From the sequence record MH383160: a stretch of DNA of 64,000 nt; one strand, 5' to 3'. The translations under genes were made by a program, and so were the position numbers. Shown in pieces: positions 27,488 through 52,187 of the stretch (within the stretch, counting starts at the first letter, position 1; each line of letters begins with the position of its first letter). The DNA comes from Escherichia phage UB. A model generated the notes under the pieces. That model was not told the DNA's origin, searched no databases, and saw only the letters and a program-made list of their open reading frames with translations.

Positions 27488-27752
27488 ATTTCTCTTTATT
27501 AGCTTGTTTTGTTTTATGGTGAATTAAATCTATTAATGTAATCAAGTACAACGTCAAATAGTACTCTTGTTGATCTGTACCTAATGATACAAAGAACTTG
27601 TGCTCATAGATTAAAACCTGTTTCTCTTCAAATGGACATTTAATCCTCTGTATAGGCTTAAGTAAATGATAGTACTTATTAAATCTATGATACATTTCTA
27701 GTTCTGTCAGTACTTTCATATTAAACACGTACTCCATTAGCAGTAGCATCAC
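27477..27752 (-). CDS. LGT-QE family small protein (hypothetical)
   Basis: ORF track 91 aa; core SLGTDQQEYY. Confidence 0.55.
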   Translation of the reverse strand: MMLLLMEYVFNMKVLTELEMYHRFNKYYHLLKPIQRIKCPFEEKQVLIYEHKFFVSLGTDQQEYYLTLYLITLIDLIHHKTKQANKEKYEN

Positions 27753-27942
27753 GTAAAGCTGTCAAATACTTCTGTACTGCTTGCTCTTGTTTATTTGTAC
27801 CTAAAAGTATATACATCCATAATTCACTGTAATGTACATCTTCTGTATAAGGGTTGTTGTAACTTTTTGATAATATAGCATCAAATTCAGATGCATGAAC
27901 CCTTGTGAACTTAAGAATATCTTGTTGTGTTATGATTCTCAT
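27721..27942 (-). CDS. LGT-QE family small protein (hypothetical)
   Basis: ORF track 73 aa; core LLGTNKQEQ. Confidence 0.55.
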   Translation of the reverse strand: MRIITQQDILKFTRVHASEFDAILSKSYNNPYTEDVHYSELWMYILLGTNKQEQAVQKYLTALRDATANGVRV

Positions 27943-28154
27943 ATCTTTTCCTGTACAATCTGTATAAGAATACCTATGTGTGAATTAACAGTTCTCTCTT
28001 GATGCTGTGTTCCTAAGAGTGTCAGTACTATCATATCTGAACGCAAAAGATTTTTTTCAAGTTCACTTATATCAGTTCTTGAATCAAGTGCCATATATTT
28101 GTGATTATTCTTCCTGAATAGTGCCAAGTACTCTTGATTTGATATTTCCTTCAT
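27939..28154 (-). CDS. LGT-QE family small protein (hypothetical)
   Basis: ORF track 71 aa; core LLGTQHQER. Confidence 0.55.
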   Translation of the reverse strand: MKEISNQEYLALFRKNNHKYMALDSRTDISELEKNLLRSDMIVLTLLGTQHQERTVNSHIGILIQIVQEKI

Positions 28155-28372
28155 AGTTTATTCCTGATGCCATTTAAAAGTGCTCTAATATGCTCATTGA
28201 CAAATCGCTCTTGGGAATCTGTTCCTAGAGTGAGTAGCAATCTTAAATCTGAACTTTTGATGTGATATTCTAAATCATTATTTGATTCTTGCATCAGTTT
28301 CTTAAAGGATGAGAAGTTTGCAGCCATTAGTTCAATGTATTCTGCTGTTCCTAGTGGTTTGTGTGTTGACAT
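28151..28372 (-). CDS. LGT-QE family small protein (hypothetical)
   Basis: ORF track 73 aa; core TLGTDSQER. Confidence 0.55.
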   Translation of the reverse strand: MSTHKPLGTAEYIELMAANFSSFKKLMQESNNDLEYHIKSSDLRLLLTLGTDSQERFVNEHIRALLNGIRNKL

Positions 28373-28584
28373 TTGAGTTGTATTACCCTTTTGAGTGTAT
28401 TAATGTAATTATACACATTGGCTTCTTGATAGTTTGTTCCTAGAGTAGCTTGAACATAGATTTCATTTAACTTAATAATTTTATCAGTATCTGGTAGTTT
28501 TGATGTGTTAATGGCAAATAACTTCAAAAACAGTCCATTTAAGATTGTTAGGTATTCTTCGTCGGTAATGATTCGCATTTGCAT
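28351..28584 (-). CDS. LGT-QE family small protein (hypothetical)
   Basis: ORF track 77 aa; core IYVQATLGTNYQEA; near-identical to next gene. Confidence 0.55.
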   Translation of the reverse strand: MQMRIITDEEYLTILNGLFLKLFAINTSKLPDTDKIIKLNEIYVQATLGTNYQEANVYNYINTLKRVIQLKCQHTNH

Positions 28585-28796
28585 TGGATAAACCTTTTTA
28601 GTTCTTTGATGTAATCATTAATATTGCATTCTTGGTAGTTAGTTCCCAGTGTAGCTTGAACATAGATTTCACTTACTAGAATACTTATTTCATCATCTGG
28701 TAATTTCATGCTTTTTGTTATAAACAACTTTAGAATTAAACTACTTAATAGTTGGTTGTATTCTGTGGGTGAAATGATTTTCATTTTCATTTGCAT
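28548..28796 (-). CDS. LGT-QE family small protein (hypothetical)
   Basis: ORF track 82 aa; core IYVQATLGTNYQEC. Confidence 0.55.
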   Translation of the reverse strand: MQMKMKIISPTEYNQLLSSLILKLFITKSMKLPDDEISILVSEIYVQATLGTNYQECNINDYIKELKRFIQCKCESLPTKNT

Positions 28797-29002
28797 TTTC
28801 TCAGTACTGATTCTTTAAGTTCATTGATGTAGTCCTCAACGAATTGTTCTTGTAGGTTTGTTCCGAGATATAACAGTACTCTTAAATCTGCTCTAAGTAC
28901 TTCTTTGTCATCTTCATCTATATCAGACAGTGTTATGTTTAAGAATTTACTTGAATTCTCTACAAGTAATATTACTTCTTCACCTTCTCTTAAAATTTTC
29001 AT
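28787..29002 (-). CDS. LGT-QE family small protein (hypothetical)
   Basis: ORF track 71 aa; core YLGTNLQEQ. Confidence 0.55.
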   Translation of the reverse strand: MKILREGEEVILLVENSSKFLNITLSDIDEDDKEVLRADLRVLLYLGTNLQEQFVEDYINELKESVLRKCK

Positions 29003-29208
29003 AATCTTAGTGCTTTCCTCGACAGTAGGTACAGGTAACGTTCAGTGCATTGTTCTTGATAGTTTGTTCCTAATAAATGAACTAAATGTTGTTCAGCTAT
29101 AGAAAGCTGCTTGTCTTCATAACAAGCGTATCGTTGTTTCCTATGGTATTCTTTATTGATAACATCAAGGATGATAACACCGTATTCGTCATCTGTCAAG
29201 TGTTTCAT
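28999..29208 (-). CDS. LGT-QE family small protein (hypothetical)
   Basis: ORF track 69 aa; core LLGTNYQEQ. Confidence 0.55.
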   Translation of the reverse strand: MKHLTDDEYGVIILDVINKEYHRKQRYACYEDKQLSIAEQHLVHLLGTNYQEQCTERYLYLLSRKALRL

Positions 29209-29446
29209 GCTTTTTTCTTTTTCTTATATGTTTAGTTAAAAGGTATATTAGTTTTCTGATGTATTCTTCCTGATAGTTTGTTCCTAAGAGTGCAAGAAGT
29301 TTTGCTTCAACTAAAGCTAATTGACGTTCTTCGAATGTGTGTTCCAGTATGTACTTGGGGTTTGATTTTTTAGCGTAAGCACTATTAGTCTTCATTACAA
29401 TCTTATGATATTCATTAGCTGTTAGGATTTTTAAATACTTGATCAT
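29189..29446 (-). CDS. LGT-QE family small protein (hypothetical)
   Basis: ORF track 85 aa; core LLGTNYQEE. Confidence 0.55.
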   Translation of the reverse strand: MIKYLKILTANEYHKIVMKTNSAYAKKSNPKYILEHTFEERQLALVEAKLLALLGTNYQEEYIRKLIYLLTKHIRKRKKHETLDR

Positions 29447-29666
29447 GTATCTTTTCCTTTATAGAGAATTTAAGATATCGAAGCATACTTTCAATGTAAT
29501 ACTCTTGTCTGTCAGTGCCAAGAAAGTACATGAGTTGAATGTATAAAACTTCTGCACTCCTTTCCGCTGGAGACTTGTTTGTGTCGTTTGGAAGTTGATT
29601 TGTATGTTTTCTTGATTTAATTAGTCGTTCTTTTAACTCATCGTCTGTTAAGTATTTCATTTTCAT
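29415..29666 (-). CDS. LGT-QE family small protein (hypothetical)
   Basis: ORF track 83 aa; core PAERSAEVL...FLGTDRQEY. Confidence 0.55.
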   Translation of the reverse strand: MKMKYLTDDELKERLIKSRKHTNQLPNDTNKSPAERSAEVLYIQLMYFLGTDRQEYYIESMLRYLKFSIKEKIHDQVFKNPNS

Positions 29667-29892
29667 TTACTTTTTCCTTAATAGTAATTTTAAGATATCT
29701 AATCATACGTGCAACATATTCCTCTTGTCTATCAGTTCCCAGAAGATATGGTAGTGATTGGAATAATACTTCTGCACTCCTTTCTGCTGGGGTTTGGTTT
29801 AGGTCAATTGGACGTTTATTGGTATATCTCTTGGCACGAACTAATCTCTCGACGTATTCATTATAGGTTAAGTATATCATTTCATTTTGCAT
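29638..29892 (-). CDS. LGT-QE family small protein (hypothetical)
   Basis: ORF track 84 aa; core LLGTDRQEE. Confidence 0.55.
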   Translation of the reverse strand: MQNEMIYLTYNEYVERLVRAKRYTNKRPIDLNQTPAERSAEVLFQSLPYLLGTDRQEEYVARMIRYLKITIKEKVNENEILNRR

Positions 29893-30118
29893 TTACTTTT
29901 TCCTTAATAGTAATTTTGAGATATTTAATTATACGTTCAATGTGATACTCTTGCCTATCAGTTCCAAGAAGGTATGGTAATCTTTGGAATAAAACTTCCG
30001 CACTCCTTTCTGCTGGGGTTTGATTTGTGTTGTGAGGAAGTTTATTTGTAAGTCTTTTGGATTTATCTAGTCTTTCTGTTAACTCATCATGTGTTAAGTA
30101 TATCATTTCATTTTGCAT
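29882..30118 (-). CDS. LGT-QE family small protein (hypothetical)
   Basis: ORF track 78 aa; core LLGTDRQEY. Confidence 0.55.
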   Translation of the reverse strand: MQNEMIYLTHDELTERLDKSKRLTNKLPHNTNQTPAERSAEVLFQRLPYLLGTDRQEYHIERIIKYLKITIKEKVNAK

Positions 30119-30345
30119 TTAATGTTCCTTACGTAAATTGTCTGGATTAAACAATCAATCCAAGTTTGAATATATTGGTTTTGATACTGTGTGCCTAAGA
30201 GACTCTGCATTTTAAACTCTGCTTCAAGTTCATATCTCTTTTCTATAGAAAAGCTCAAATGACCATATTCTTTATCGTATCTTCTCAGTGCTTCCCCAAT
30301 TCTATTAAATCTTTCTGCTAATCTGATGTTATTCACAATATTCAT
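30103..30345 (-). CDS. LGT-QE family small protein (hypothetical)
   Basis: ORF track 80 aa; core LLGTQYQNQ. Confidence 0.55.
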   Translation of the reverse strand: MNIVNNIRLAERFNRIGEALRRYDKEYGHLSFSIEKRYELEAEFKMQSLLGTQYQNQYIQTWIDCLIQTIYVRNIKCKMK

Positions 30346-30632
30346 CGATCAGTATACCTCAGTGGTTGGGTCATTTGATAAAAGTACAGCTTACCTTTGA
30401 TTTCCAGTAGTAACTCCGCGATTAAGCGATTTACTTCTGTATCTTGATAGTTTGTTCCTAAGAATACACCCATCTTTAACTCACGCATCATAATCATTTT
30501 CTTACTGTGTTGGATTTCTGGGTTGTGATAAATTGTATTACGTTTGTGCGTAATTTTTGTCATACGCTCGGTATATTCATCTTTACTTAAATTGATCATT
30601 TGCATGTTAATTACCCTTACATTTATTTTCAA
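30342..30632 (-). CDS. LGT-QE family small protein (hypothetical)
   Basis: ORF track 96 aa; core FLGTNYQDT. Confidence 0.55.
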   Translation of the reverse strand: MKINVRVINMQMINLSKDEYTERMTKITHKRNTIYHNPEIQHSKKMIMMRELKMGVFLGTNYQDTEVNRLIAELLLEIKGKLYFYQMTQPLRYTDR

Positions 30633-30837
30633 TACTATTCATGAGTTCTATAAGATAGTTTTCTACCTTACCTTCCTGATAGTTAGTCCCTAGGAAGTTG
30701 CACAACACGGCTTCTATGATTTTGATTTTCCTGATATCAGGCTTCAATCTTTTGTTATTGAATATTTGAATCCTTATATCTCTGGATGCATTTAAACGTT
30801 TTTGATATTCATGGTAAGTTAAATGAATCATTTTCAT
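30607..30837 (-). CDS. LGT-QE family small protein (hypothetical)
   Basis: ORF track 76 aa; core FLGTNYQEG. Confidence 0.55.
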   Translation of the reverse strand: MKMIHLTYHEYQKRLNASRDIRIQIFNNKRLKPDIRKIKIIEAVLCNFLGTNYQEGKVENYLIELMNSIENKCKGN

Positions 30838-31052
30838 TTACGTTTAACCTCTCGCTGGAGGGCATCAATTAACATCAGTACAGCATTCTCTTGATAGTTT
30901 GTTCCTAAGACTGAAAGCATCTTTATCTCATTTACTAAAATCAACTTCTTTGAGGGTTCAATAATGTGACTATCATAAACGGCCTTACGTGCTGGATAAG
31001 TTTTCGCCAGTATAACATAAAATTCGTCTTTACTTAAATTAATCATTTGCAT
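30834..31052 (-). CDS. LGT-QE family small protein (hypothetical)
   Basis: ORF track 72 aa; core VLGTNYQEN. Confidence 0.55.
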   Translation of the reverse strand: MQMINLSKDEFYVILAKTYPARKAVYDSHIIEPSKKLILVNEIKMLSVLGTNYQENAVLMLIDALQREVKRK

Positions 31053-31261
31053 TTACTTTTAACCTCTTTCTGTAGAGCGTCAATCCATAGATCTACATAC
31101 ATTTGTTGATAGTTTGTGCCTAAGAGTGCACCTACATAGAGTTCAGTTACTAGTGCGTGCTTAAGGTTAGCTTGGATGCTCTTATCGCTTGATATCATTC
31201 TCCTTCTGCTTCCACATGTTTTCAGGAGTCTGATGTATTCAAAGCCTTGTAAATTTCTCAT
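31043..31261 (-). CDS. LGT-QE family small protein (hypothetical)
   Basis: ORF track 72 aa; core LLGTNYQQM. Confidence 0.55.
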   Translation of the reverse strand: MRNLQGFEYIRLLKTCGSRRRMISSDKSIQANLKHALVTELYVGALLGTNYQQMYVDLWIDALQKEVKSKCK

Positions 31262-31473
31262 ATTTTGGATACCACCTTGTTACGTAAGGAACTTAATAAT
31301 ACGTCAGTGTAGATGTTTTGATAGTTTGTCCCTACGAATACACCCAACTTCATTTCAGCTATTATAACACATTTGTCCTCTTGTGCAATAGATTTGTTTA
31401 ACACAATACTATACACTTTTGATTTGATAGTTTGTAACCTCCAATGATACTGATACTCATTAAGGATTATCAT
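31258..31473 (-). CDS. LGT-QE family small protein (hypothetical)
   Basis: ORF track 71 aa; core FVGTNYQNI. Confidence 0.55.
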   Translation of the reverse strand: MIILNEYQYHWRLQTIKSKVYSIVLNKSIAQEDKCVIIAEMKLGVFVGTNYQNIYTDVLLSSLRNKVVSKI

Positions 31474-31708
31474 TCTCTTTCCTCCAGATTTCGGTTCTCA
31501 TGTGTTGGCAGTGTGCTTCGATGAACATATCTATTGATTTGGCAATTGCGTTTTTATCAGTGCCTGTCATCAGTACAAGCATCTCGGCCTCACAGTGAAG
31601 TAAACGCATGATATCATAGGGTAATATTTCAGATACAGTGTCATAGTGTTTCTGTGCCAGTGTCTGCAATAGTTTACAATACATTTTGTGATTTAGTCTT
31701 TGTCGCAT
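31460..31708 (-). CDS. LGT-QE family small protein, divergent (hypothetical)
   Basis: ORF track 82 aa; core LMTGTDKNAI. Confidence 0.5.
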   Translation of the reverse strand: MRQRLNHKMYCKLLQTLAQKHYDTVSEILPYDIMRLLHCEAEMLVLMTGTDKNAIAKSIDMFIEAHCQHMRTEIWRKENDNP

Positions 31709-31965
31709 TGTTTATTCCATTCTTTTTTGGCCTTGATGGTTTTATATTGGATTTGGTTTCTTAATGCTGATAAGTATCGTTGAATGAACAGATCTTGATA
31801 GTTTGTTCCAATGAATTTCATAAGATAAAGTTCACCGTTGATAACATCCACTTCAGGTGCACCATATAAGGCATTGTTTTTTCTAAGGGCATGGATTAAA
31901 GAGAATAGGGCAGTTTGATACTCAACTCCTGATAAAGTCTTCATGTTTTGTGAGCAAATAATCAT
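31693..31965 (-). CDS. LGT-QE family small protein (hypothetical)
   Basis: ORF track 90 aa; core FIGTNYQDL. Confidence 0.55.
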   Translation of the reverse strand: MIICSQNMKTLSGVEYQTALFSLIHALRKNNALYGAPEVDVINGELYLMKFIGTNYQDLFIQRYLSALRNQIQYKTIKAKKEWNKQCDKD

Positions 31966-32179
31966 CTAGTTTATCCTGTATAACATTCGTTAATTGTTCG
32001 ATATATTCTGTGCAAAACTTATCTTGATATTGAGTCCCCATAAAGTACAGCAACCATAGCTCATTAACTTTAGCTCGCATTTGGTTCCATGTAAGGCTGG
32101 GGTCACCGTAGACTATCCTTGTGATGGGGGTTAGTTTACGAATTATAGTTTCAAATTCATCATCAGTTAAGTGTTTCAT
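31922..32179 (-). CDS. LGT-QE family small protein (hypothetical)
   Basis: ORF track 85 aa; core FMGTQYQDK. Confidence 0.55.
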   Translation of the reverse strand: MKHLTDDEFETIIRKLTPITRIVYGDPSLTWNQMRAKVNELWLLYFMGTQYQDKFCTEYIEQLTNVIQDKLDDYLLTKHEDFIRS

Positions 32180-32394
32180 TTACATTTGTCCCTTATTAGA
32201 TCAGTGAGGGCAACTATGTGTGCAACAACATACTCTTCCTGAAAGTTCGTCCCCAGTACAGCCATCATGCGTATATCGGTGGTGTTTATCCTGTGTTCCC
32301 TTACACATAAACCTTCTGTGTGAGGAAGTGTAAAATATTTGTTTATTGCAGCAACGATAATTTTATTCTTCTCGGAGTTACTTAAATGTTTCAT
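32176..32394 (-). CDS. LGT-QE family small protein (hypothetical)
   Basis: ORF track 72 aa; core VLGTNFQEE. Confidence 0.55.
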   Translation of the reverse strand: MKHLSNSEKNKIIVAAINKYFTLPHTEGLCVREHRINTTDIRMMAVLGTNFQEEYVVAHIVALTDLIRDKCK

Positions 32395-32603
32395 AGTTTA
32401 CTCCTGATATAATTCTGAAGTGCAATTAAGTATTCCCCTACATAATACACCTGAAAGTCTGTATCAAGGAATGCACCCATAAGTAAATCTTTTTCTAATA
32501 CCCTTGATAAGTTAAGGTCTGCATTTGAAAGGTATATAAGTAAGATTTCACCCTGTGCGGAATTGAAACGTTTCTTATATTCTTCTGATGTTAAAAAAAT
32601 CAT
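32391..32603 (-). CDS. LGT-QE family small protein (hypothetical)
   Basis: ORF track 70 aa; core FLDTDFQVY. Confidence 0.5.
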   Translation of the reverse strand: MIFLTSEEYKKRFNSAQGEILLIYLSNADLNLSRVLEKDLLMGAFLDTDFQVYYVGEYLIALQNYIRSKL

Positions 32604-32815
32604 AATTTGCTCCTGATATATTTCTCAAGAGATGACAAATACTTTTCCTCATAATACTTCTGATAGTCTGTTCCTAAGAATGCACCCAATAGTATATCAT
32701 TTTCCAATACCTCGGCTAAGTTTAAATCAGAAGTCTCTTCGTATATTATGAGGATTTCAAGTTGTCTGGCAGCGATGCGTTCAGTATATTGATATGAGTT
32801 TTCTATAATAATCAT
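32600..32815 (-). CDS. LGT-QE family small protein (hypothetical)
   Basis: ORF track 71 aa; core FLGTDYQKY. Confidence 0.55.
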   Translation of the reverse strand: MIIIENSYQYTERIAARQLEILIIYEETSDLNLAEVLENDILLGAFLGTDYQKYYEEKYLSSLEKYIRSKL

Positions 32816-33021
32816 AGTTTACTCTTAATATCTTCTATTAAAAATCGAATCCATTCTTCAACATAATCTTCCTGATGGTTTGTGTTCAGTACAGCCAACA
32901 TGCGGATCTCTGCTCTTGCAACTTCAATTTCAGTTTTAGGAAGGTCTTTGCTGATATCCACCATTAAGTCCATGTATTTCAAGATAAGACCGTATGATTG
33001 GGTTCGTGTTATAGTTTTCAT
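32812..33021 (-). CDS. LGT-QE family small protein (hypothetical)
   Basis: ORF track 69 aa; core VLNTNHQED. Confidence 0.5.
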   Translation of the reverse strand: MKTITRTQSYGLILKYMDLMVDISKDLPKTEIEVARAEIRMLAVLNTNHQEDYVEEWIRFLIEDIKSKL

Positions 33022-33218
33022 TGTTTCCTCGTGGACAATATTTTATTTTTCAATGTATCCATATATTGAATCACCCATCTTTCCTGATAGTTAGTTCCCA
33101 AAGTAATCAAAAGGTATAACTCCATTCGTTCTACGTGTGTGTCTGTATTATAAATCTTTGTGAAGTTTTTACGTAACAGTGATTGATATTCTTCTTTATT
33201 TAAAATACGCATTTTCAT
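33018..33218 (-). CDS. LGT-QE family small protein (hypothetical)
   Basis: ORF track 66 aa; core TLGTNYQER. Confidence 0.55.
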   Translation of the reverse strand: MKMRILNKEEYQSLLRKNFTKIYNTDTHVERMELYLLITLGTNYQERWVIQYMDTLKNKILSTRKQ

Positions 33219-33412
33219 AGTTTACTCGTTATATCTTCAATTAAATACCAAATCCAATCGTTGACATACCTTTCCTGAAAGTTAGTTCCAATGAATAGTG
33301 CCATAATTAATTCACGCTTATAGGCAATACCACGGTCATGGGACTTATACATTATCATAGCCATGTTATTGATAAGTCTTTCGTGGTGCTGTTCTTTAGT
33401 TAAAATACGCAT
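33215..33412 (-). CDS. LGT-QE family small protein (hypothetical)
   Basis: ORF track 65 aa; core FIGTNFQER; first gene of the array. Confidence 0.55.
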   Translation of the reverse strand: MRILTKEQHHERLINNMAMIMYKSHDRGIAYKRELIMALFIGTNFQERYVNDWIWYLIEDITSKL

Positions 33413-34341: not shown

Positions 34342-34395
34342 GATAAAACTCCTTAATTTAGGAGGGAGAACCATTTCCCCCTCTCTATGTAAAAC

Positions 34396-34423
34396 ATTAT
34401 ACATGAATCTAAGTACTATGCAA
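34396..34423 (-). promoter_or_regulatory. sigma70-like promoter
   Basis: minus strand TTGCAT-N16-TATAAT, then 5'UTR hairpin and RBS. Confidence 0.55.
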
Positions 34424-34430
34424 GTACTTT

Positions 34431-34763
34431 TTACATTTTGATACCTGGATTCAGGTAGCGGTGAGATCCATATTCTGGATCGGTTTCGGTCCAGTACTGT
34501 AAATCAATAGTGCCTTTAGCGTTAATCTTGTCTACCAGCTTATTCATCTTAGCGTATACTACATCGGCATCGATGCGTTTAAAGCCAGTAGCTTTAGTGA
34601 AGTAGTAGTGATTTGCTTCACTATCATTGAGGATATACCGAGCACCGTTTGCAGTCTGTGCGATAATGATTGAGTATTCTACTTCACGATCCAGTCCGTC
34701 GATGAATACAGATGAAACATTGGTACGGATGAAAGCTTTAACGATAGCGATTGAAGTACTCAT
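34431..34763 (-). CDS. hypothetical protein
   Basis: ORF track 110 aa; AGGAG RBS 7 nt upstream. Confidence 0.6.
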   Translation of the reverse strand: MSTSIAIVKAFIRTNVSSVFIDGLDREVEYSIIIAQTANGARYILNDSEANHYYFTKATGFKRIDADVVYAKMNKLVDKINAKGTIDLQYWTETDPEYGSHRYLNPGIKM

Positions 34764-34816
34764 TTTGAATCTCCTAACTTTGTGGGCCGTCGCACCATTG
34801 CCGCCCTACGAGATAC

Positions 34817-34845
34817 ATTATCGCAGTACTGATATACTTTGTCAA
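34817..34845 (-). promoter_or_regulatory. sigma70-like promoter
   Basis: minus strand TTGACA-N17-GATAAT. Confidence 0.5.
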
Positions 34846-34924
34846 TACTTTTTTATTAATAGTTTTAGTTCCACCAGCAGATAGTTACTCACCGTTATTA
34901 ACTATATATTTTGGATACACCTAT

Positions 34925-34938
34925 GCACCCTGTGGGCT
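34925..34938. repeat. conserved intergenic box GCACCC-N3-GGGCT
   Basis: gcaccctgtgggct; same box recurs at 37178, 40450, 42807, 44471, 50403 and reversed at 48367, 52116. Confidence 0.5.
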
Positions 34939-34968
34939 AGTTTTTGTCTATGCGTATATAATAGCAAA

Positions 34969-34997
34969 GGGACTGACCGGAGTCAATCCTTTTTTTA
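34969..34997. terminator. intrinsic terminator hairpin (plus-strand geometry, possibly bidirectional)
   Basis: GGGACTGAC-CGGA-GTCAATCC followed by T8 on plus strand; ends minus-strand gene 35008..35208. Confidence 0.5.
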
Positions 34998-35007
34998 TTC
35001 TTTTTTG

Positions 35008-35208
35008 TTAGATGATTCTCCAATCATCAACGATCATGGTAAGATACCGAACCAGTGATTCGAGTGATTCGTGTTCTCGATAGTCTGCCGCTCCACCAGC
35101 GGTACAAGTACAGCCGATTACGCCGTTTTGTAGTTCCTGGATCTTTACGTCGATCTGGTTGGCTTTAGCTTCTTTCAGTACTTCAACCAGGGCGATAGCG
35201 ATAGACAT
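35008..35208 (-). CDS. hypothetical protein
   Basis: ORF track 66 aa; GGAG RBS. Confidence 0.55.
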   Translation of the reverse strand: MSIAIALVEVLKEAKANQIDVKIQELQNGVIGCTCTAGGAADYREHESLESLVRYLTMIVDDWRII

Positions 35209-35263
35209 AATGTTTTACTCCAAACTATTGGCGGGAGAACTATTCCCCCGCTCTATGTAAAAC

Positions 35264-35291
35264 ATTATACATTACTGGTTAGTACTGTCAA
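35264..35291 (-). promoter_or_regulatory. sigma70-like promoter
   Basis: minus strand TTGACA-N16-TATAAT followed by hairpin GCGGGGGAATAGTTCTCCCGC. Confidence 0.55.
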
Positions 35292-35298
35292 ATAGTTT

Positions 35299-35556
35299 TT
35301 ATGAAATATCTTCGATGTAGTCGGCCCATTTCATTTTTTCAGTACTGTCAATGGCTACCGGATTATTTGGATCAAACCATTCACCATCCCCGCAATACAT
35401 ACCCACGGCAACGGTTTTATAGCCATCCTGGGCAGTACTCCACGACATAGCACGATAGATATGGCCTTTAACTGGTTGCAGTACTGGTAACGTTTTATGG
35501 TCTTCTACGTAGGCCATAGCTTGAGGATTTACCCGATATTGTGTGAATTGTTCCAT
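35299..35556 (-). CDS. hypothetical protein
   Basis: ORF track 85 aa; AGGGG RBS. Confidence 0.6.
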   Translation of the reverse strand: MEQFTQYRVNPQAMAYVEDHKTLPVLQPVKGHIYRAMSWSTAQDGYKTVAVGMYCGDGEWFDPNNPVAIDSTEKMKWADYIEDIS

Positions 35557-35584
35557 TATGTTTCCCCTTGTTGTTAGTAAAGTT

Positions 35585-35613
35585 ATTACATCAGTACTAT
35601 CAAGCTATGTCAA
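35585..35613 (-). promoter_or_regulatory. sigma70-like promoter
   Basis: minus strand TTGACA-N17-TGTAAT. Confidence 0.45.
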
Positions 35614-35632
35614 TAGTACTGAAATAAAACTT

Positions 35633-35857
35633 TTAGATTAGATTATTGATGCCGTTGATGGTAGACTCGCTTTCTTCTTTCTCCCATTGGCGGTAGTACT
35701 TCCATGCTTCATGATATGTGGCGATTAGTTCATCTTTTTGATCCTGAGTACATGCCAGTACTGAATCACTGTAAGCGGTGTTATAGATAGAATCAAATGA
35801 TTTCTTATCTGCCGCCAGGTTTACTACTGCCCGGATCAGGTCATCGTGATTAGCCAT
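35633..35857 (-). CDS. hypothetical protein
   Basis: ORF track ORF trimmed to ATG 35857 (MANHDDLIRAV) with AAGGAG RBS. Confidence 0.55.
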   Translation of the reverse strand: MANHDDLIRAVVNLAADKKSFDSIYNTAYSDSVLACTQDQKDELIATYHEAWKYYRQWEKEESESTINGINNLI

Positions 35858-35905
35858 CGTATTACTCCTTATTAGTGGGGGAGGATATCTCCCCCTATGC
35901 AAAAC

Positions 35906-35933
35906 ATTATACTTTGTTTTAGTTATTATGCAA
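35906..35933 (-). promoter_or_regulatory. sigma70-like promoter
   Basis: minus strand TTGCAT-N16-TATAAT; hairpin GGGGGAGATATCCTCCCCC in 5'UTR. Confidence 0.55.
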
Positions 35934-36189
35934 GTACTTTTTTCATATAAACATTAAATTCTACACCGCCGTAACCTTCTACGATGATATGTTTTGCGTT
36001 ATCACGTTTGCACATAGTGAAACCGTTGTTGATATGTTCTGCATTTTCCAGGGATACATCACCGATTGCAGCACATACGGCACTAATAACAGTATTCCGC
36101 AAAGTACTGGTATCATTAGCGGTCATAGTAGTTTGCAGTACTACGTTGTCGTATACGTGTGCATTGATAGTGATTTCGATAGTGTTCAT
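35926..36189 (-). CDS. hypothetical protein
   Basis: ORF track 87 aa; AGGAG RBS. Confidence 0.6.
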   Translation of the reverse strand: MNTIEITINAHVYDNVVLQTTMTANDTSTLRNTVISAVCAAIGDVSLENAEHINNGFTMCKRDNAKHIIVEGYGGVEFNVYMKKVLA

Positions 36190-36240
36190 GGTGTATCTCC
36201 TGGACTAGCGGGAGAACTATTCCCCCGCTCTATGTAAAAC

Positions 36241-36268
36241 ATTATACGTTAATCTAACTACAATGCAA
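36241..36268 (-). promoter_or_regulatory. sigma70-like promoter
   Basis: minus strand TTGCAT-N16-TATAAT. Confidence 0.55.
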
Positions 36269-36275
36269 GTACTTT

Positions 36276-36467
36276 TTAAATTTTATTTCCGATATAGTCC
36301 GGCCTGTTCTTTTCGGTCATACGCTTAAGCATTTTTTGCATATGGCTTATTGCTTGTAGTGTATCCTCTTCCAGGGATGAATCGAGATAATCAGGATCAT
36401 TCTTTACCTTGCAATGATTATGATAGCGTAGTACTGCCAGTACTTTTTTAACTTCTTCAACTGTCAT
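36276..36467 (-). CDS. hypothetical protein
   Basis: ORF track 63 aa; 4-nt overlap with upstream gene. Confidence 0.5.
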   Translation of the reverse strand: MTVEEVKKVLAVLRYHNHCKVKNDPDYLDSSLEEDTLQAISHMQKMLKRMTEKNRPDYIGNKI

Positions 36468-36736
36468 AATAAGTACTCCACTTCGTTAGCTTTCAGGTTA
36501 GTATCAATCATCAGTGGTTTTTTGTAGTCCACAAAACGATTAGTTTTCTCGATGGCGAATCCCATATAATCCAGCTTACTTACCGTGCATTCATTCTTAA
36601 AAACTTCTTTCGCTGCATTGATGGCTGATTCAATTGATAACCGACCATCTAAGTTAATGTTTCCAAATGATCCACCAGCAGAAGTAGGATTACCGTTCAT
36701 ATCTTTAATGATCATAGTAGCGGAGTAGCTAGACAT
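36464..36736 (-). CDS. hypothetical protein
   Basis: ORF track 90 aa. Confidence 0.6.
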   Translation of the reverse strand: MSSYSATMIIKDMNGNPTSAGGSFGNINLDGRLSIESAINAAKEVFKNECTVSKLDYMGFAIEKTNRFVDYKKPLMIDTNLKANEVEYLL

Positions 36737-36789
36737 AATTTTGTTTCCTTTTATTGGTGGGGAGAACTATTCTCCCCTTGATGTAAACT

Positions 36790-36817
36790 ATTATACAGTA
36801 CTGATATACTTTGTCAA
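36790..36817 (-). promoter_or_regulatory. sigma70-like promoter
   Basis: minus strand TTGACA-N16-TATAAT; hairpin GGGGAGAATAGTTCTCCCC in 5'UTR. Confidence 0.55.
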
Positions 36818-36820
36818 TAC

Positions 36821-43994: not shown

Positions 43995-44336
43995 TTATTC
44001 GAAATCTTCTGGACCGGACTGATAATCATCTTCACCGTATGCACTTTCTAACCGCTCACCAGTGTAATCATCAGTTAAGCTATCATCCTCATAGTTCACG
44101 TCTACGCCTGTGATGTAAAACTGGCTATCGTCTGGATCATTGAAATTAATTTTTTGGATGTTTACAATAACTGTATTGATGCCCAGGACACCGCCATCAG
44201 CCGTTACAAAGTACTGATAGTTTTCACAACCGCCTGAATTGAAACCGTAATTAATTTCGGCCCGACCATCATTTAAACGCAGTGCCTGGGCAATGATTTC
44301 ATTTTCAAAGTTAGATTGAGCAATTGAGATAGTCAT
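43995..44336 (-). CDS. hypothetical acidic protein
   Basis: ORF track 113 aa; AAGGAA RBS. Confidence 0.6.
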   Translation of the reverse strand: MTISIAQSNFENEIIAQALRLNDGRAEINYGFNSGGCENYQYFVTADGGVLGINTVIVNIQKINFNDPDDSQFYITGVDVNYEDDSLTDDYTGERLESAYGEDDYQSGPEDFE

Positions 44337-44387
44337 GATTCGTTTCCTTATTACCAGGGGAAACCGTTTCCCCTTGCGATGTAAAAC

Positions 44388-44415
44388 ATTATACGCTTAT
44401 TGAGATAGTTTGCAA
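44388..44415 (-). promoter_or_regulatory. sigma70-like promoter
   Basis: minus strand TTGCAA-N16-TATAAT. Confidence 0.5.
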
Positions 44416-44470
44416 GTACTTTTTAAAAATAGTTTTCAGTACTCAAACATTATACAATAGATACACTCCT

Positions 44471-44484
44471 GCACCCTGTGGGCT
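44471..44484. repeat. conserved intergenic box GCACCC-N3-GGGCT
   Basis: gcaccctgtgggct. Confidence 0.5.
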
Positions 44485-44520
44485 AGTGAGCTATCTCTCA
44501 ATGAATATATAATAGCAAAC

Positions 44521-44548
44521 TGGCTGACCGAAGTCAACCACTTTTTCA
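44521..44548. terminator. terminator-like hairpin
   Basis: TGGCTGAC-CGAA-GTCAACCA (one mismatch) followed by T-run; overlaps stop of 44546..44683. Confidence 0.4.
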
Positions 44549-44683
44549 TTTATTTTTAGCTTTTAGAATCGCCGCCTTTCGCGTCATGCCTTGCTTGATG
44601 TACTCATTTACTTTCGCTTTTTTAGCGTTTACCTTGTCTGCTTTCGTTTTAGGAGTACTGTAAATTATACCGTTAGGATTCAT
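44546..44683 (-). CDS. small basic hypothetical protein
   Basis: 45-aa Lys-rich ORF (MNPNGIIYSTPKTKADK...); below ORF-track cutoff. Confidence 0.4.
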   Translation of the reverse strand: MNPNGIIYSTPKTKADKVNAKKAKVNEYIKQGMTRKAAILKAKNK

Positions 44684-44773
44684 TTAAATCACCATAAAGA
44701 ATAGATAGGTTACTAACAATGCCGCGATCATTGCACCGACCAGGGCCGAACTGTAATAAGCTAATGATTTCAT
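44684..44773 (-). CDS. putative small hydrophobic (membrane) peptide
   Basis: 29-aa ORF MKSLAYYSSALVGAMIAALLVTYLFFMVI; ATGA overlap with upstream gene. Confidence 0.35.
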   Translation of the reverse strand: MKSLAYYSSALVGAMIAALLVTYLFFMVI

Positions 44774-44922
44774 TTTTTAGCCTGAAAATAATGTTTAATT
44801 TGAGCGGCGGTCAGTGCACAATTACGCAGGAAGTTTTCTGTATAACTGCGTCGAGTACTGAAAGAAAATTGACCTTTACCGTTCCCGATAGTAACATCAA
44901 ACCGAGCATTATATTGTTTCAT
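44770..44922 (-). CDS. hypothetical protein
   Basis: ORF track ORF trimmed to ATG 44922 (MKQYNARF) with AGGAGA RBS. Confidence 0.5.
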   Translation of the reverse strand: MKQYNARFDVTIGNGKGQFSFSTRRSYTENFLRNCALTAAQIKHYFQAKK

Positions 44923-44972
44923 TTTGTTTCTCCTGTTCTTGGGGAGAATCATTTCTCCCCTTCATGTAAACT

Positions 44973-45000
44973 ATTATACAGTACTAAAAACTAATTGCAA
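44973..45000 (-). promoter_or_regulatory. sigma70-like promoter
   Basis: minus strand TTGCAA-N16-TATAAT; hairpin GGGGAGAAATGATTCTCCCC. Confidence 0.5.
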
Positions 45001-45003
45001 GTA

Positions 45004-45150
45004 TTATTTTTTAGATTTACGTAAACTTTCTACCATCTCAGGAGTAAGCCCCAGCGGGTAGGAAACCACTTCATCCACAAAACGCAAAGGGAATACCCCA
45101 TCTAAAGTTGAACGTGCTTTCTTATTAGTACTCTTTTTTGATGCTTTCAT
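45004..45150 (-). CDS. small hypothetical protein
   Basis: 48-aa ORF (MKASKKSTNKKAR...) with AAGGAA RBS. Confidence 0.4.
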   Translation of the reverse strand: MKASKKSTNKKARSTLDGVFPLRFVDEVVSYPLGLTPEMVESLRKSKK

Positions 45151-45201
45151 TTCATATTCCTTAATTAGTGGGGAGAACTATTTCTCCACTTCATGTAAAC
45201 T

Positions 45202-45229
45202 ATTATACAGTACTAAAAACTAATTGCAA
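45202..45229 (-). promoter_or_regulatory. sigma70-like promoter
   Basis: minus strand TTGCAA-N16-TATAAT. Confidence 0.5.
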
Positions 45230-45429
45230 GTATTATTTTCTAAAAAATGTTTGTATGCTGAATCAACCACTCTTTCGATAACATACGCTAACGGCACGTA
45301 TCCAACTACATGACTACAATAAAAAGGACTACGATTAGAATCATCGTATGCAAATACTTTTTCAGGATCTGCATCAATCACATACATATTAACCTTTAAG
45401 ATGTCGATCTTATCCTGTACAGTAAGCAT
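45220..45429 (-). CDS. hypothetical protein
   Basis: ORF track 69 aa. Confidence 0.55.
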   Translation of the reverse strand: MLTVQDKIDILKVNMYVIDADPEKVFAYDDSNRSPFYCSHVVGYVPLAYVIERVVDSAYKHFLENNTCN

Positions 45430-45434
45430 ATTAA

Positions 45435-45707
45435 TTAACCTTTTAAGTACTGGCTTAAGTAGTCTTTTTGATCTTCGGTGATTGCAGTCATCTTCCCTAG
45501 TACTGGGTTGATGATATAATCCCCTGTAACGTCCTGTGACGCATTCTCAGGGTGTTTAACGGCTGGGGTAGCCATAGCCATTGCCTGGACTTGTTCGACG
45601 CTGTAACGCTCATAAAGGCGGCATTCTTCCGGTGTTAACATAGCATCAGTACGCTTCATCGGTTTAATGATGCTTTCGATCTCATTCAGTACTTGATTAA
45701 CGTTCAT
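45435..45707 (-). CDS. hypothetical protein
   Basis: ORF track 90 aa. Confidence 0.6.
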   Translation of the reverse strand: MNVNQVLNEIESIIKPMKRTDAMLTPEECRLYERYSVEQVQAMAMATPAVKHPENASQDVTGDYIINPVLGKMTAITEDQKDYLSQYLKG

Positions 45708-45758
45708 GGTATAATCCCCAATATAAGCGGCCTAAAACGACCGCTAACGATGTTTTGA

Positions 45759-46028
45759 TTAATAGGTGTAAGGTTGACGCTCAAACAATGATTGCACGTT
45801 GTACGCCCCGCTAATGGGCTTTGCTGGCAAATCGATTTTATATTGTTCACGCTTAAAGATAATAAAACGGCAATTGTTTTTAACATCAAAATTGATTGAA
45901 CGTTCCAGGAGTTTTCCATCGTGCACAAATACAAGATAACCGCTTGGTACTTGTTTTGTAGTACTGGTTGCAACCATAGACCGACGAACATGAGTACCTG
46001 CATCGATTAAAGTACTGATATTTTTCAT
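45759..46028 (-). CDS. hypothetical protein
   Basis: ORF track 89 aa; AAGGAA RBS and promoter module upstream; preferred over overlapping frame 45704..46003. Confidence 0.55.
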   Translation of the reverse strand: MKNISTLIDAGTHVRRSMVATSTTKQVPSGYLVFVHDGKLLERSINFDVKNNCRFIIFKREQYKIDLPAKPISGAYNVQSLFERQPYTY

Positions 46029-46059
46029 TTTAGTTTCCTTAGTTGTCTTGATAAAATCT

Positions 46060-46088
46060 ATTATGCCAGTACTATCAAACTATGTCAA
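46060..46088 (-). promoter_or_regulatory. sigma70-like promoter
   Basis: minus strand TTGACA-N17-CATAAT. Confidence 0.5.
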
Positions 46089-46107
46089 TAGTACTGTGAT
46101 AATATTT

Positions 46108-46251
46108 TTACTTACTTTTTGCTTTCTTAATTGCTTCCACCTGGTCGGCCCATTCTTTACCCCATACTTGTAAATTATAATGGTACTGGCAAAGAGCAAC
46201 GCCCCGCTTTAAACCAGTAATAGATTTTTTACCACATTGACAAGTTTTCAT
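46108..46251 (-). CDS. small hypothetical protein with CxC...CxxH
   Basis: 47-aa ORF MKTCQCGKK...CQYH; AAGGAA RBS. Confidence 0.4.
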   Translation of the reverse strand: MKTCQCGKKSITGLKRGVALCQYHYNLQVWGKEWADQVEAIKKAKSK

Positions 46252-46300
46252 ATTAGTTTCCTTGTAGTGGGGAGAATCATTTCTCCCCTTGATGTAATGT

Positions 46301-46328
46301 ATTATACTTTATTCGATTTACTTTGCAA
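46301..46328 (-). promoter_or_regulatory. sigma70-like promoter
   Basis: minus strand TTGCAA-N16-TATAAT. Confidence 0.5.
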
Positions 46329-46336
46329 GTACTTTT

Positions 46337-46564
46337 TTAATTTAATTCATCCAGGCAAAGGATACGCTCAACGCCCAAATCAGTTAAACTAATGGTCGGC
46401 ACTTGATAGGTTTCAATGTATGCTACAGTTGCCCACTGACCGAACTCATTAACGGCCCAGGTATTCATTGCATTTTGCAATTCCGCACCTGCCTTGTTAG
46501 TAATGACTGCAACTACTTGTTCGTTGCCAGTAGTACCAGATACGCGAGTAATGATAATAGCCAT
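46337..46564 (-). CDS. hypothetical protein
   Basis: ORF trimmed to ATG 46564 (MAIIITRVSG) with AAGGAA RBS; upstream codons are translated 5'UTR. Confidence 0.55.
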   Translation of the reverse strand: MAIIITRVSGTTGNEQVVAVITNKAGAELQNAMNTWAVNEFGQWATVAYIETYQVPTISLTDLGVERILCLDELN

Positions 46565-46619
46565 TGTTTTGATTCCTTTGATTTGGAAGGAGAACCGTTT
46601 TCCCCTCTCGATGTAAAAC

Positions 46620-46647
46620 ATTATACGCTAATCTATTAATCATGCAA
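46620..46647 (-). promoter_or_regulatory. sigma70-like promoter
   Basis: minus strand TTGCAT-N16-TATAAT. Confidence 0.55.
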
Positions 46648-46799
46648 GTACTTTTTATTACTTTTTGCAAAATACTTTAAACGCTCTCAATCGCATTCTA
46701 ACGACCTTAACGCCACCAGCTAGGGCGATGTATCAGATAATCAGTTTAATGCGTTAGAATCGATTATAGGCGGTGCTAGTGGACTGGAATACTATAGAC

Positions 46800-46827
46800 A
46801 CAAAAAAGCCCACTGTTTAAGGTGGGC
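46800..46827 (-). terminator. intrinsic terminator
   Basis: minus strand hairpin AGCCCAC-CTTAAACA-GTGGGCT followed by U6; after stop of 46850..47332. Confidence 0.6.
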
Positions 46828-46849
46828 TATTGATTCAGTACTTTAATTG

Positions 46850-47332: not shown

Positions 47333-47455
47333 TTTATAAATCCTCAATTAAAGTTTAGTTTACGTTTATTAGTGTATCAAAGTTTTTTTGACGTGTCCAG
47401 TTTTTCGTTCGACTTACTGGCGGTCTACTTAGTGCTCCCCGTCTTGATGTAATAC

Positions 47456-47483: not shown

Positions 47484-47534
47484 CTACTTTTTTAAAACTA
47501 TTTTCAAAGTATCTCAGTACTACAATACTACAAA

Positions 47535-47564: not shown

Positions 47565-47581
47565 AGTGATTCAGTACTATA

Positions 47582-48310: not shown

Positions 48311-48339
48311 TTGACAACTGCATCCAGTACTGGCATAAT
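48311..48339 (+). promoter_or_regulatory. sigma70-like promoter on plus strand (divergent)
   Basis: plus strand TTGACA-N17-CATAAT; no plus-strand ORF downstream. Confidence 0.4.
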
Positions 48340-48345
48340 ACTTAT

Positions 48346-48453
48346 ATAAAGACGATACAGTCACTAACCCACAGGGTGCCGAGATCCGTCTATTAAATGA
48401 TTCAGTACTGAAAAAGTAACGGGGAGTTATTATCTCCCCGCGTTGTTATTTGG
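48346..48453 (+). ncRNA. candidate small non-coding RNA
   Basis: ~105 nt between plus-strand promoter and hairpin GGGGAG-TTATTA-CTCCCC (48421..48439) with U-rich tail; contains ACCCACAGGGTGC box; no ORF. Confidence 0.3.
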
Positions 48454-50353: not shown

Positions 50354-50402
50354 GTACTTTTTGAAAAATAGTTTTTAATCACTTTTATATAGATACACTC
50401 CC

Positions 50403-50416
50403 GCACCCTATGGGCT
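50403..50416. repeat. conserved intergenic box GCACCC-N3-GGGCT
   Basis: gcaccctatgggct; here followed by a different hairpin CCGGCTT-N17-AAGCCGG (50429..50459). Confidence 0.45.
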
Positions 50417-50476
50417 ATCGCCTTGTGTCCGGCTTGTAAGTATTATCTCACTAAGCCGGATAATGGTCAAGTACTT

Positions 50477-51845: not shown

Positions 51846-51873
51846 TTGACTCAGTACTAAAAAAGCGTATAAT
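51846..51873 (+). promoter_or_regulatory. sigma70-like promoter on plus strand
   Basis: plus strand TTGACT-N16-TATAAT, directed toward the iteron region; no ORF downstream. Confidence 0.4.
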
Positions 51874-52061
51874 TACTACATAGACGCGAGAAAGCGGATA
51901 TCCCAAGGGGTGCGGAATTGTGCCCAAAATTCAAGATATAAAAAAAAGGATACACTCCCGCACCCTAGCAGGTCAAAGCACTTTCTCAGTACTGAATCAT
52001 AGTACCATAGTACGCCCCAGGATGGCAAGCAAATTAATTAAAACTTTTTTCATCCAGGGTA

Positions 52062-52089
52062 TTGCTTTATTTTTCCAGTACTGTATAAT
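52062..52089 (+). promoter_or_regulatory. sigma70-like promoter on plus strand
   Basis: plus strand TTGCTT-N16-TATAAT followed by AGCCCACCGGGTGC box (52116..52129). Confidence 0.4.
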
Positions 52090-52187
52090 AGTTTCATCAA
52101 GTCGAGAAAGACTATAGCCCACCGGGTGCATAGTTACGCCCAAAATTTCAGTACTAGATTATTTTTTAAAAATATTCATCCAGGCGG

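Follow-up and report, generated by a model that had tools for sequence, protein, structure and literature searches.

Why does a jumbo coliphage repeat one short piece of intergenic DNA, a hairpin with a small box behind it, between so many of its early genes? The question is raised by a stretch of 64,000 nucleotides from Escherichia phage UB (sequence record MH383160; this whole stretch is called the window here), in which such a cassette recurs between positions 34909 and 52145. A first-pass annotation took the box for a double-stranded DNA operator of a dimeric protein and the hairpin for a plus-strand terminator that insulates against antisense transcription. That interpretation is partly supported: it appears to have named the wrong strand, and the element probably acts as an RNA, not as a DNA operator. 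The anatomy of the cassette, and its reading at the level of RNA in the sense of the flanking genes (from the minus strand), are highly probable on the sequence. As for its purpose, the best explanation overall, to which we lean with some reserve, is that the cassette is an early-transcription module combining a terminator, a sigma-70 promoter and a folded RNA. Most likely the RNA would serve to control early transcription, either as a switch close to the promoter or as a small RNA.

Recurrence and anatomy of the cassette

The box GCACCCNNNGGGY, of the form GCACCC-N3-GGGY, has eight exact matches in the window, at 34925, 37178, 40450, 42807, 44471 and 50403 on the plus strand and at 48367 and 52117 on the minus strand. 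The expectation by chance is 0.01, and none of 100 shuffled sequences reached eight. The hairpin GGGACTGACCGGAGTCAATCC, searched for with up to three mismatches permitted, is present at 34969, 37227 and 40494, exactly in all three cases, with none expected; a fourth hairpin, at 44521-44540, is a variant with compensating changes. All copies in the window, which we designate A to J, are intergenic. The first-pass annotation had placed the cassette at four sites, between the end of a gene and the next promoter, and had listed the box by itself at 42807, 50403 and, in reverse, 48367 and 52116. These statements hold, as does every sequence quoted for them, including TATATAATAGCAAA and the plus-strand T-run, with the correction that the last box starts at 52117. 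Two diverged copies, at 51876-51929 (plus strand) and at about 51945-51998 (minus strand), lie beyond that list. In copies B, C and E the repeat runs on for about 100 bp, into the next promoter and the hairpin of its 5' untranslated region (5'UTR); these extensions, at 37074-37150, 40344-40420 and 44367-44443, form family D2.

Read in gene sense, the cassette begins with the stop codon of the upstream gene, followed by an A-tract, a hairpin with TTGACT in its 5' arm, UUUG and TGnTATTAT. About 7 nt further on come a conserved CA, an optional stem-loop (P1), a CUAA linker, the box as RCCC-AYA-GGGUGC, a 6-nt spacer and a tail, NYRYCY. The transcribed element would be about 55 nt long, and its core, CCC-AYA-GGGUGC, is invariant. 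On this strand, TATATAATAGCAAA is the complement of the U-tract and extended -10, AGATACAC is the complement of the tail (the AGATAC region), and the plus-strand T-run is the complement of the A-tract, which extends the stem and overlaps the last codons. The predicted promoter-plus-RNA unit is autonomous. Copies of it are also found in both orientations, in convergent pairs and with no terminator.

A family of copies in related phages

The 97-nt cassette has full-length matches, at 72-79% identity and at several places per genome, in phages of other genera. These are phages of Yersinia, Cronobacter (GAP32), Serratia, Erwinia, Salmonella (Munch), Klebsiella (RaK2, K64-1 and fENko-Kae01) and Pectobacterium (CBB); coliphage EJP2 is also matched, which makes eight host genera in all, Escherichia included. 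Loci were fetched from the matched phages and from IMG/VR contigs, where the initial pattern was too loose, gave mostly chance matches and was filtered with nhmmer. A sequence-only profile yielded 44 unique copies and a pattern-plus-context search 110. The covariance model R1, built from 21 equal-length copies and holding no promoter columns, detects nine copies in the window, with no further match there up to E = 1, and 120 copies in 322 kb of related Rak2-like loci. The element has 10 or more copies per genome, about 10-20, throughout a group of giant enterobacterial phages. The recurrence described in the first-pass annotation withstands the refutation test set for it there, since the element is kept at equivalent positions in phage G17 and, at full length, in other genera.

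For some copies the orthologous flanking genes are also kept across genera, as with the genes downstream of copies E and G; the gene at 49564-50175, downstream of copy G, has a homologue downstream of copies in CBB and G17. Alignment of window positions 36724-50468 with G17 (locus L001) shows eight gene-sized indels or replacements of 230-540 bp in 14 kb. In this comparison with one relative, two of the eight, at 42559-42880 and 50375-50468, touch a module. The pattern is consistent with a shuffling of promoter-plus-gene modules.

A scan of window positions 33000-54000 against Rfam 15 (E<=1) returned only a chance match to mir-1000 elsewhere in that region, and no description of the element was found in the searchable literature. 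The leader has no blastn match in 5,426 complete E. coli genomes, and host mimicry is rejected on this ground. When 185,579 bacterial and archaeal genomes were scanned for CTARCCCAYAGGGTGC, the matches listed were scattered, without promoter context and chance-like. The non-coding RNAs of phage PA5oct are unrelated, differing in size and context.

A predicted promoter embedded in a probable terminator

By a consensus scan, all four hairpins contain TTGACT-17-TATTAT together with the TG of an extended -10 (-35 starts at 34986, 37244, 40511 and 44537). Promoters are also found upstream of the remaining boxes, when these are read as RCCC-NNN-GGGTGC. Since the hairpin carries a promoter that reads into the box, the box would be transcribed. 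The same holds across the family: at 93 of 109 unique R1 matches there is a sigma-70 promoter with at least 9 of 12 consensus positions and with A-11 and T-7 at the expected place, as against 1.1% of random positions drawn from the same loci. The extended -10 TG accompanies 59% of the matches and 7.6% of the random positions. On the opposite strand a promoter of at least 9/12 occurs at 8 of 109 copies, with a wide offset permitted. By these measures the predicted promoter is of the sigma-70 extended -10 type.

A hairpin of at least 6 bp lies over the -35 in 47 of 110 copies; it has 39 distinct sequences, and TTGAC is kept in all. On which strand would it act? G.U pairs make up 83 of the 536 stem pairs in these 47 copies, and each would be an A.C mismatch on the plus strand. 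The folding energies differ accordingly: -19.5 kcal/mol (z -5.8) in gene sense versus -13.2 (z -2.8) on the plus strand for the hairpin of copy B, -15.5 (z -4.6) versus -6.5 (z -1.7) for that of copy E, and -18.1 (z -4.2) versus -9.3 (z -1.4) for a hairpin of GAP32. In the annotations of G17 and GAP32 the same hairpins appear as gene-sense ARNold terminators or stem-loops. Hence the terminator-like character that had been noted stands, and the plus-strand orientation does not. The cassette hairpin is a predicted gene-sense intrinsic terminator directly after the stop codon, with a short U-tract (UUUG...); bidirectional termination at it is possible.

Both consensus forms are those of ordinary E. 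coli intrinsic terminators and extended -10 promoters (A-tract, U-tract, TTGACW-17-TGnTATWAT). In contrast to the ordinary signals, the two are superimposed here, so that the release point of one is the -10 of the next promoter, and the arrangement is kept across genera.

Probable structure of the transcribed element

P1, with at least 3 bp at the expected position, is present in 80 of 81 long copies, compared with 57% of shuffled controls. About 30 different stems occur, closed by purine-rich loops (GAGAAA, GCGAAA, AGAUAA or AGAACAA). The 29 short copies, about a quarter, lack P1 and have a single-stranded GAAACAA-like stretch instead. RNAalifold, run on a MAFFT alignment of leaders of unequal length, recovered the 3-bp box stem alone and misaligned P1, and the 21 equal-length copies were used instead. 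In this gap-free alignment all four pairs of P1 show two-sided compensatory changes and 96% of cells are paired, which none of 500 shuffles matched. P1 is probably a generic 5' stem-loop, because together with its ACUAA/ACUGA linker it resembles the 5'UTR hairpin of the neighbouring early mRNAs, from which this part of the leader looks derived. P1 may have a role in mRNA stabilisation.

The second helix, P2, is the hairpin of the box itself (RCCC/GGGU). Among 43 copies found by sequence alone, with no requirement of pairing, the inner stem is CCC/GGG in 40 and CCU/AGG in three, and it is half-changed in none. At the outer pair, 68 copies have A-U, 38 have G.U and four a mismatch; on the other strand the mismatched copies would number 42. 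The base after GGG, which varies between C and T, gives G.U or A-U in the gene-sense RNA and A.C on the other strand. Stem changes that come only in pairs, and variation that is neutral on one strand, speak against the view that the box is the binding site of a dimeric protein on DNA.

In the third helix, P3, GGGUG would pair with tail positions 6 to 2. Here 96.9% of cells are paired; shifting the partner segment lowers this figure to 31-71%. Nearly all variation at tail positions 2-6 consists of transitions (C/U, A/G), which retain pairing with G or U, and the unpaired positions beside the tail have frequent transversions. On the opposite strand, the four of these five pairs that are dominated by G.U would have mismatches in 43-98 of 110 copies; for the fifth, which is mostly G-C, the number is 11.

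P2 and P3 are mutually exclusive because GGGU is common to both. The calculated energies are -3.7 +/- 0.55 kcal/mol for P2 and -1.5 +/- 3.9 for P3; P3 is more stable than P2 in 44 of 110 copies and, within the window, in 8 of 10, and the minimum-energy fold of several copies consists of P1 and P3. On these models, the box is read as the shared strand of a putative two-state P2/P3 element.

Two other features of the leader were considered and rejected. Pairing of the tail with the P1 loop (AGAUA/UAUCU), which is present in the minimum-energy fold of copy B, fits only the copies with AGAUAA loops and shows no covariation with GAGAAA or GCGAAA loops. A small open reading frame in the leader is excluded by start codons, frames and stops that are not conserved.

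The copies in the window

Copy A (34909..34989, minus strand), the one flagged in the first-pass annotation, is short, without P1. Its hairpin (T0) lies at 34970-34989, its promoter, TTGACT-17-TATTAT with TG, at 34986-34958, its R1 match at 34909-34951 (39 bits, E 2e-7), its box at 34925-34937 and its P3 tail, GUAUCC, at 34918-34913. Copy B (37162..37251, minus strand) is long, with T0 at 37224-37251 (-19.5 kcal/mol, z -5.8), the -35 TTGACT at 37244-37239, the -10 TATTAT, preceded by TG, at 37221-37216, and an R1 match at 37162-37215 (67.2 bits, E 4.5e-15). In alignment A2 its pairings are 37207-37204/37197-37194 for P1, 37190-37187/37183-37180 for P2 and 37183-37177/37172-37166 for P3. Copy C (40434..40518, minus strand) is again short, with T0 at 40491-40518, the promoter at 40511-40483, the R1 match at 40434-40482 (E 2.3e-6) and the box at 40450-40462. 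Copy E (44455..44540, minus strand), a long copy, has the compensated T0 at 44521-44540, the promoter at 44537-44509, the R1 match at 44455-44508 (64.7 bits) and the box at 44471-44483.

Copies D and G consist of promoter and leader. In D (42791..42875, minus strand), which overlaps no terminator, the promoter is TTGACA-17-CATAAT with TG (42875-42847), the R1 match spans 42791-42843 (E 8e-7) and the box lies at 42807-42819; the segment is absent from G17, within the indel at 42559-42880. In G (50387..50470, minus strand) the promoter is TTGACC-17-GATAAT with TG (50470-50442), the R1 match spans 50387-50441 (E 8e-8) and the box lies at 50403-50415.

Copy F (48311..48395, plus strand) runs against the genes. 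It has TTGACA-17-CATAAT with TG at 48311-48339, an R1 match at 48342-48395 (E 1e-6) and a box at 48367-48379, and its leader leads into a terminator-like hairpin at 48420-48440. Copy H (52062..52145, plus strand), in a region poor in open reading frames, has TTGCTT at 52062-52067, a 16-bp spacer and TATAAT at 52084-52089, with an R1 match at 52093-52145 (E 1e-5) and a box at 52117-52129.

The diverged copies I and J form the convergent pair of the window. Copy I (51846..51929, plus strand), in which the core reads CCC-AAG-GGGUGC, has TTGACT-16-TATAAT at 51846-51873 and an R1 match at 51876-51929 (E 1.6e-4); its P3 is calculated at -7.6 and its P2 at -1.9 kcal/mol. Copy J (51939..52028, minus strand), missed by R1 at E<=1, has TTGCCA-18-TACTAT with TG at 52028-51999, the box-like CCUGCUAGGGUGC at 51972-51960 and a terminator-like hairpin at 51966-51947, followed by TTTTTTTT. 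Its minimum-energy fold is P1 plus P3 (-14.5 kcal/mol), and with U8 after P3 it would be a short but complete transcription unit. A Fur-box-like palindrome, GAATGATAATCATTC, stands between convergent leaders in the Klebsiella and Salmonella relatives (in locus L123 at about 10822-10847 and 17090-17125, with equivalents in L124, L127 and L152). It is absent from the window and was rejected as a part of the cassette.

How might the module work?

We propose the following sequence of events. The intrinsic terminator would end the transcript of the upstream gene. The 5' arm of its stem would double as the -35 (TTGACW) of the next promoter, whose extended -10 (TGnTATWAT) would lie in the terminator's U-tract. 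From this promoter, host sigma-70 polymerase would start an RNA about 7 nt downstream, at the conserved CA. The invariant P2/P3 core of this RNA would then be recognised by a conserved factor, perhaps the RNA polymerase of the host or else some protein of host or phage origin, and the recognition would decide whether the polymerase pauses, stops near +55 or reads on. In this way the module would reset and gate early transcription at gene boundaries. Such control of elongation in cis, for which HK022 put and lambda nut would be functional analogues, is a tentative mechanism, and we would give it a minority chance. Recognition by a conserved factor is suggested because the structural stems vary freely and the 12-nt core does not change among eight host genera. 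In addition, the release point coincides with the embedded -10, and therefore termination and re-initiation may be coupled. Extended -10 promoters depend less on -35 and UP contacts, and for this reason the embedded promoters, most of which are of this kind, might stay active after modification of the host polymerase.

It is tempting to go further and regard the ~55-nt element as a new class of RNA switch, whose P2/P3 core would reprogram host polymerase either alone, as put RNAs do, or with a conserved phage protein. This we regard as speculative and rather doubtful.

Several observations weigh against the proposal of a transcription module with a recognised RNA. The start sites, RNA ends and promoter activity are predictions from sequence, and about 15% of the R1 matches have no good promoter. 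P2 is near-invariant, and the support for its pairing consists of three double changes; the count in alignment A2 agrees on P3 with one-sided, wobble-compatible changes only and no two-sided ones. Single-sequence folds are no better than those of shuffles (z -0.1 to -1.9); unremarkable z-scores are usual for short RNAs. The U content of the 9 nt after P3 is about that of the background and is uncorrelated with the strength of P3; P3 is ruled out as a general intrinsic terminator because no general U-tract follows it. The orientation of the copies is a further difficulty: in annotated loci about 35 are in gene sense and about 20 (~36%) antisense, and 40 of the 120 R1 matches make up 20 convergent pairs, some of them duplicated between overlapping loci. 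A simple leader of the downstream gene fits poorly, because so many copies are antisense or convergently paired. Many gene-sense copies have another strong promoter within 35-70 nt downstream. Lastly, the factor that would recognise the P2/P3 core is a postulated one.

Other explanations

Could the unit be a gene in its own right? It might encode an autonomous small RNA of about 55-100 nt, made early from 10-20 paralogous copies, which would act in trans, or would titrate a protein of the host or phage as a decoy, the flanking genes being irrelevant. A strong promoter of its own at fixed spacing, occurrence in either orientation and also without a downstream gene, high copy number and an invariant core are all what such a gene would show. 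Copy J is a complete unit of promoter, P1, P3 and U8, and in the convergent pairs inspected (two in relatives and that of the window) the spacer holds a U-rich tract after P3 that serves the gene-sense partner only. However, in most copies neither a terminator nor a defined 3' end can be recognised, the cassette copies lead directly into the next promoter and gene, and for some copies the same orthologous downstream gene is kept across genera. The target or partner is hypothetical, and the leader has no similarity in complete E. coli genomes. We consider this explanation somewhat unlikely.

A boundary element, in which the terminator, or a P3 terminator facing a convergent promoter, would block read-through and the sequence would be conserved for pausing or collision and not for an RNA function, accounts well for the arrangement of copies. 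They always lie between transcription units, 43% of them overlap a terminator, and the 20 convergent pairs have gaps of exactly 13, 24 or 31 nt, as if quantised, with none placed back-to-back. It does not account for a 12-nt core that is invariant across eight host genera when true terminator stems vary freely, and there are also stand-alone gene-sense copies without a terminator (D and G); we find it improbable.

The conservation might instead stem from gene conversion and module shuffling, the cassette serving as a scaffold for recombination similar to the PeSLs, which are composite terminator/promoter repeats in variable regions of T4-like phages (PMC4122927). In its favour, two of the eight gene-sized indels relative to G17 touch leader modules; against it, six do not. 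Moreover, gene conversion is impossible between phages of different genera, across which the core is invariant while the stems covary. The chance of this explanation seems slight.

Slighter still is that of the operator with an insulating plus-strand hairpin, the view with which the first-pass annotation began. The short inverted arms and the high conservation of the box would suit it, as would the T-run behind the hairpin and a plus-strand fold that in copy B still reaches -13.2 kcal/mol. Yet the double changes are paired, the C/T variation is neutral in the gene-sense RNA only, and DNA binding leaves the patterns of P1 and P3 unexplained; the hairpin is weaker on the plus strand, with its A.C mismatches, and relative to a conserved promoter the box occupies about +22 to +37. 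Insulation against antisense transcription by the plus-strand hairpin is part of the same view and is just as improbable.

Scarcely credible is a plus-strand small RNA gene made up of TATAAT, AGATACAC, the box, the hairpin and the T-run: TTTTCA-16-TATAAT does precede AGATACA in some window copies (site 40410), and the hairpin with T6 resembles a plus-strand terminator, but the promoter counts (8 of 109 copies, versus 93 of 109 in gene sense) rule it out, individual pairs become A.C mismatches in 38-98 of 110 copies, and the copies that lack the hairpin have no plus-strand terminator.

Relation to known systems

Among known elements, the PeSL terminator/promoter cassettes of T4-like phages come closest. 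The PeSLs and PmSLs are composite cassettes of a stem-loop terminator and an early promoter (Arbiol 2010, PMC2839356; Comeau 2014, PMC4122927). Like a PeSL, the present cassette is short, repeated and intergenic, and it combines a stem-loop terminator with an early promoter of sigma-70 type. Both occupy a variable early region in which the genes are small and of unknown function, and the present cassette may share the association with gene-sized indels that set close relatives apart; the surroundings of the cassette (small ORFan genes, a variable early region and terminal repeat) are of the PeSL type. The two differ in that here the -35 sits inside the terminator stem and the promoter is mostly of the extended -10 kind. 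Here the promoter would also drive a conserved, structured RNA of about 55 nt; the PeSL descriptions consulted contain no such conserved transcribed element. Further differences are the inverted copies, the convergent pairs, the conservation of sequence across phage genera and the indels, of which 2/8 touch a module. Finally, the PeSLs belong to Tevenvirinae, where the formation of mini-circles was demonstrated by experiment, and the present element belongs to Asteriusvirus (Rak2-like) and is known from sequence alone.

As for the RNA, the put RNAs of HK022 are short, with two stem-loops, lie just downstream of an early sigma-70 promoter, occur in more than one copy and act on the transcribing polymerase (PMC9378689). 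The likeness to them lies in the promoter-proximal position and the hairpin content and is one of description. The present element is about 55 nt long, not about 70, P1 is dispensable in a quarter of the copies, and the core has two states; each genome has 10-20 copies, of which a third run antisense to the genes.

The purine-rich P1 loop recalls boxB of the lambda nut sites. Recurrent conserved hairpins between the early genes of a virulent coliphage are also familiar from T7, in the form of RNase III processing sites, and this recurrence is the point of likeness. Unlike those sites, the helices here have 4-7 bp, too short for RNase III, and each copy has a promoter of its own. To our knowledge, the element fits neither a pyrimidine-motif triple helix, nor the ops element of RfaH, nor type I-E or I-F CRISPR repeats (as an RNA anti-CRISPR), nor ToxI, nor anticodon-loop mimicry.

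Genomic setting

At 33-46 kb the window is Asteriusvirus-like jumbo coliphage DNA; its top match is vB_EcoM_CRJP21 (99% coverage, 95.6% identity), followed by G17, PBECO4, 121Q-type phages and phAPEC6. In relatives with mapped ends the cassette stretch falls within a direct terminal repeat of about 20 kb. The minus strand carries about 45 small genes at 34-53 kb, most of them with their own sigma-70 promoter (TTGACA or TTGCAA, 16 bp, TATAAT), and after each ordinary early promoter comes the 5'UTR hairpin GGGGAGAA-N4-TTCTCCCC. Some 25 such promoters, with an A/T tract upstream, lie at 34375-52861, in repeat families D1, D2, D3 and D12; the hairpin is followed by ACUAA/ACUGA and the ribosome-binding site. 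The one beside cassette B (37074..37150, minus strand), with its UP-like A/T tract and 5'UTR hairpin, belongs to D2, whose members are 79-95% identical. It and its counterparts beside C and E (40344-40420 and 44367-44443, minus strand) have TTGCAA/TTGCAT-16-TATAAT promoters.

The genes that flank the cassettes encode 50-213 amino acids and are mostly of unknown function. One of them, at 42291-42548 (minus strand) and directly downstream of leader copy D, encodes a DksA/TraR-type zinc-finger protein. Another, at 37263-37904 (minus strand) and directly upstream of cassette B, is weakly protein-kinase-like and is a putative kinase gene. Both may be part of host takeover. No tRNA or tmRNA genes were found.

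Other repeated sequences were noted in passing. The palindromic octamer CAGTACTG occurs 50 times in window positions 1-64000 (for example at 1757, 14116, 37144, 52833 and 62829), compared with 0.7 expected, in coding and non-coding DNA alike and often within promoter spacers. Related phages are equally rich in it, and it may be a motif for binding, modification or packaging. An array of repeats with a period of about 8 bp (CGTCTAGCC / CATCTAGCC-like) occupies 52319-52470, within a promoter-dense stretch poor in open reading frames at 51.6-53.4 kb. Its alignment falls at the extreme end of the G17 record, and an origin-like region or the physical end of the genome may be close by. The terminator-like hairpin AGCCCACCTTAAACAGTGGGCT with a T-run has two identical minus-strand copies, at 46807-46828 and 47543-47564. 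Dispersed or tandem repeats inside coding DNA, at 14030-16013, 27567-33324, 29440-30111 and 57929-63729 (families D4, D8, D6 and D5), suggest arrays of paralogous small genes.

Significance for the Rak2-like phages

Early transcription in the Rak2-like phages (121Q, PBECO4, G17, RaK2, GAP32, CBB and relatives) relies on the host polymerase. Their published genome papers give generic predictions of promoters and terminators only, and no transcript-level study of these phages was found in the literature. What is added here is a defined and testable unit, a predicted terminator with a built-in promoter and a structured RNA, in more than 100 distinct copies with clear covariation. For Rfam, its RNA part is a candidate for a new family. 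The covariance model should be useful for annotation, as relatives often leave the element unannotated or under 'hypothetical protein' calls, and phage engineers would have a terminator and promoter combined in one compact part. Should the RNA turn out to control polymerase or to titrate a host factor, it would show by what means a phage of 350 kb directs the takeover of its host from the terminal repeat. If the P2/P3 core does prove to be an RNA switch of a new class, the Rak2-like phages would possess a multi-site system of their own, one by which read-through, termination and antisense transcription would be gated along the DNA that enters the cell first.

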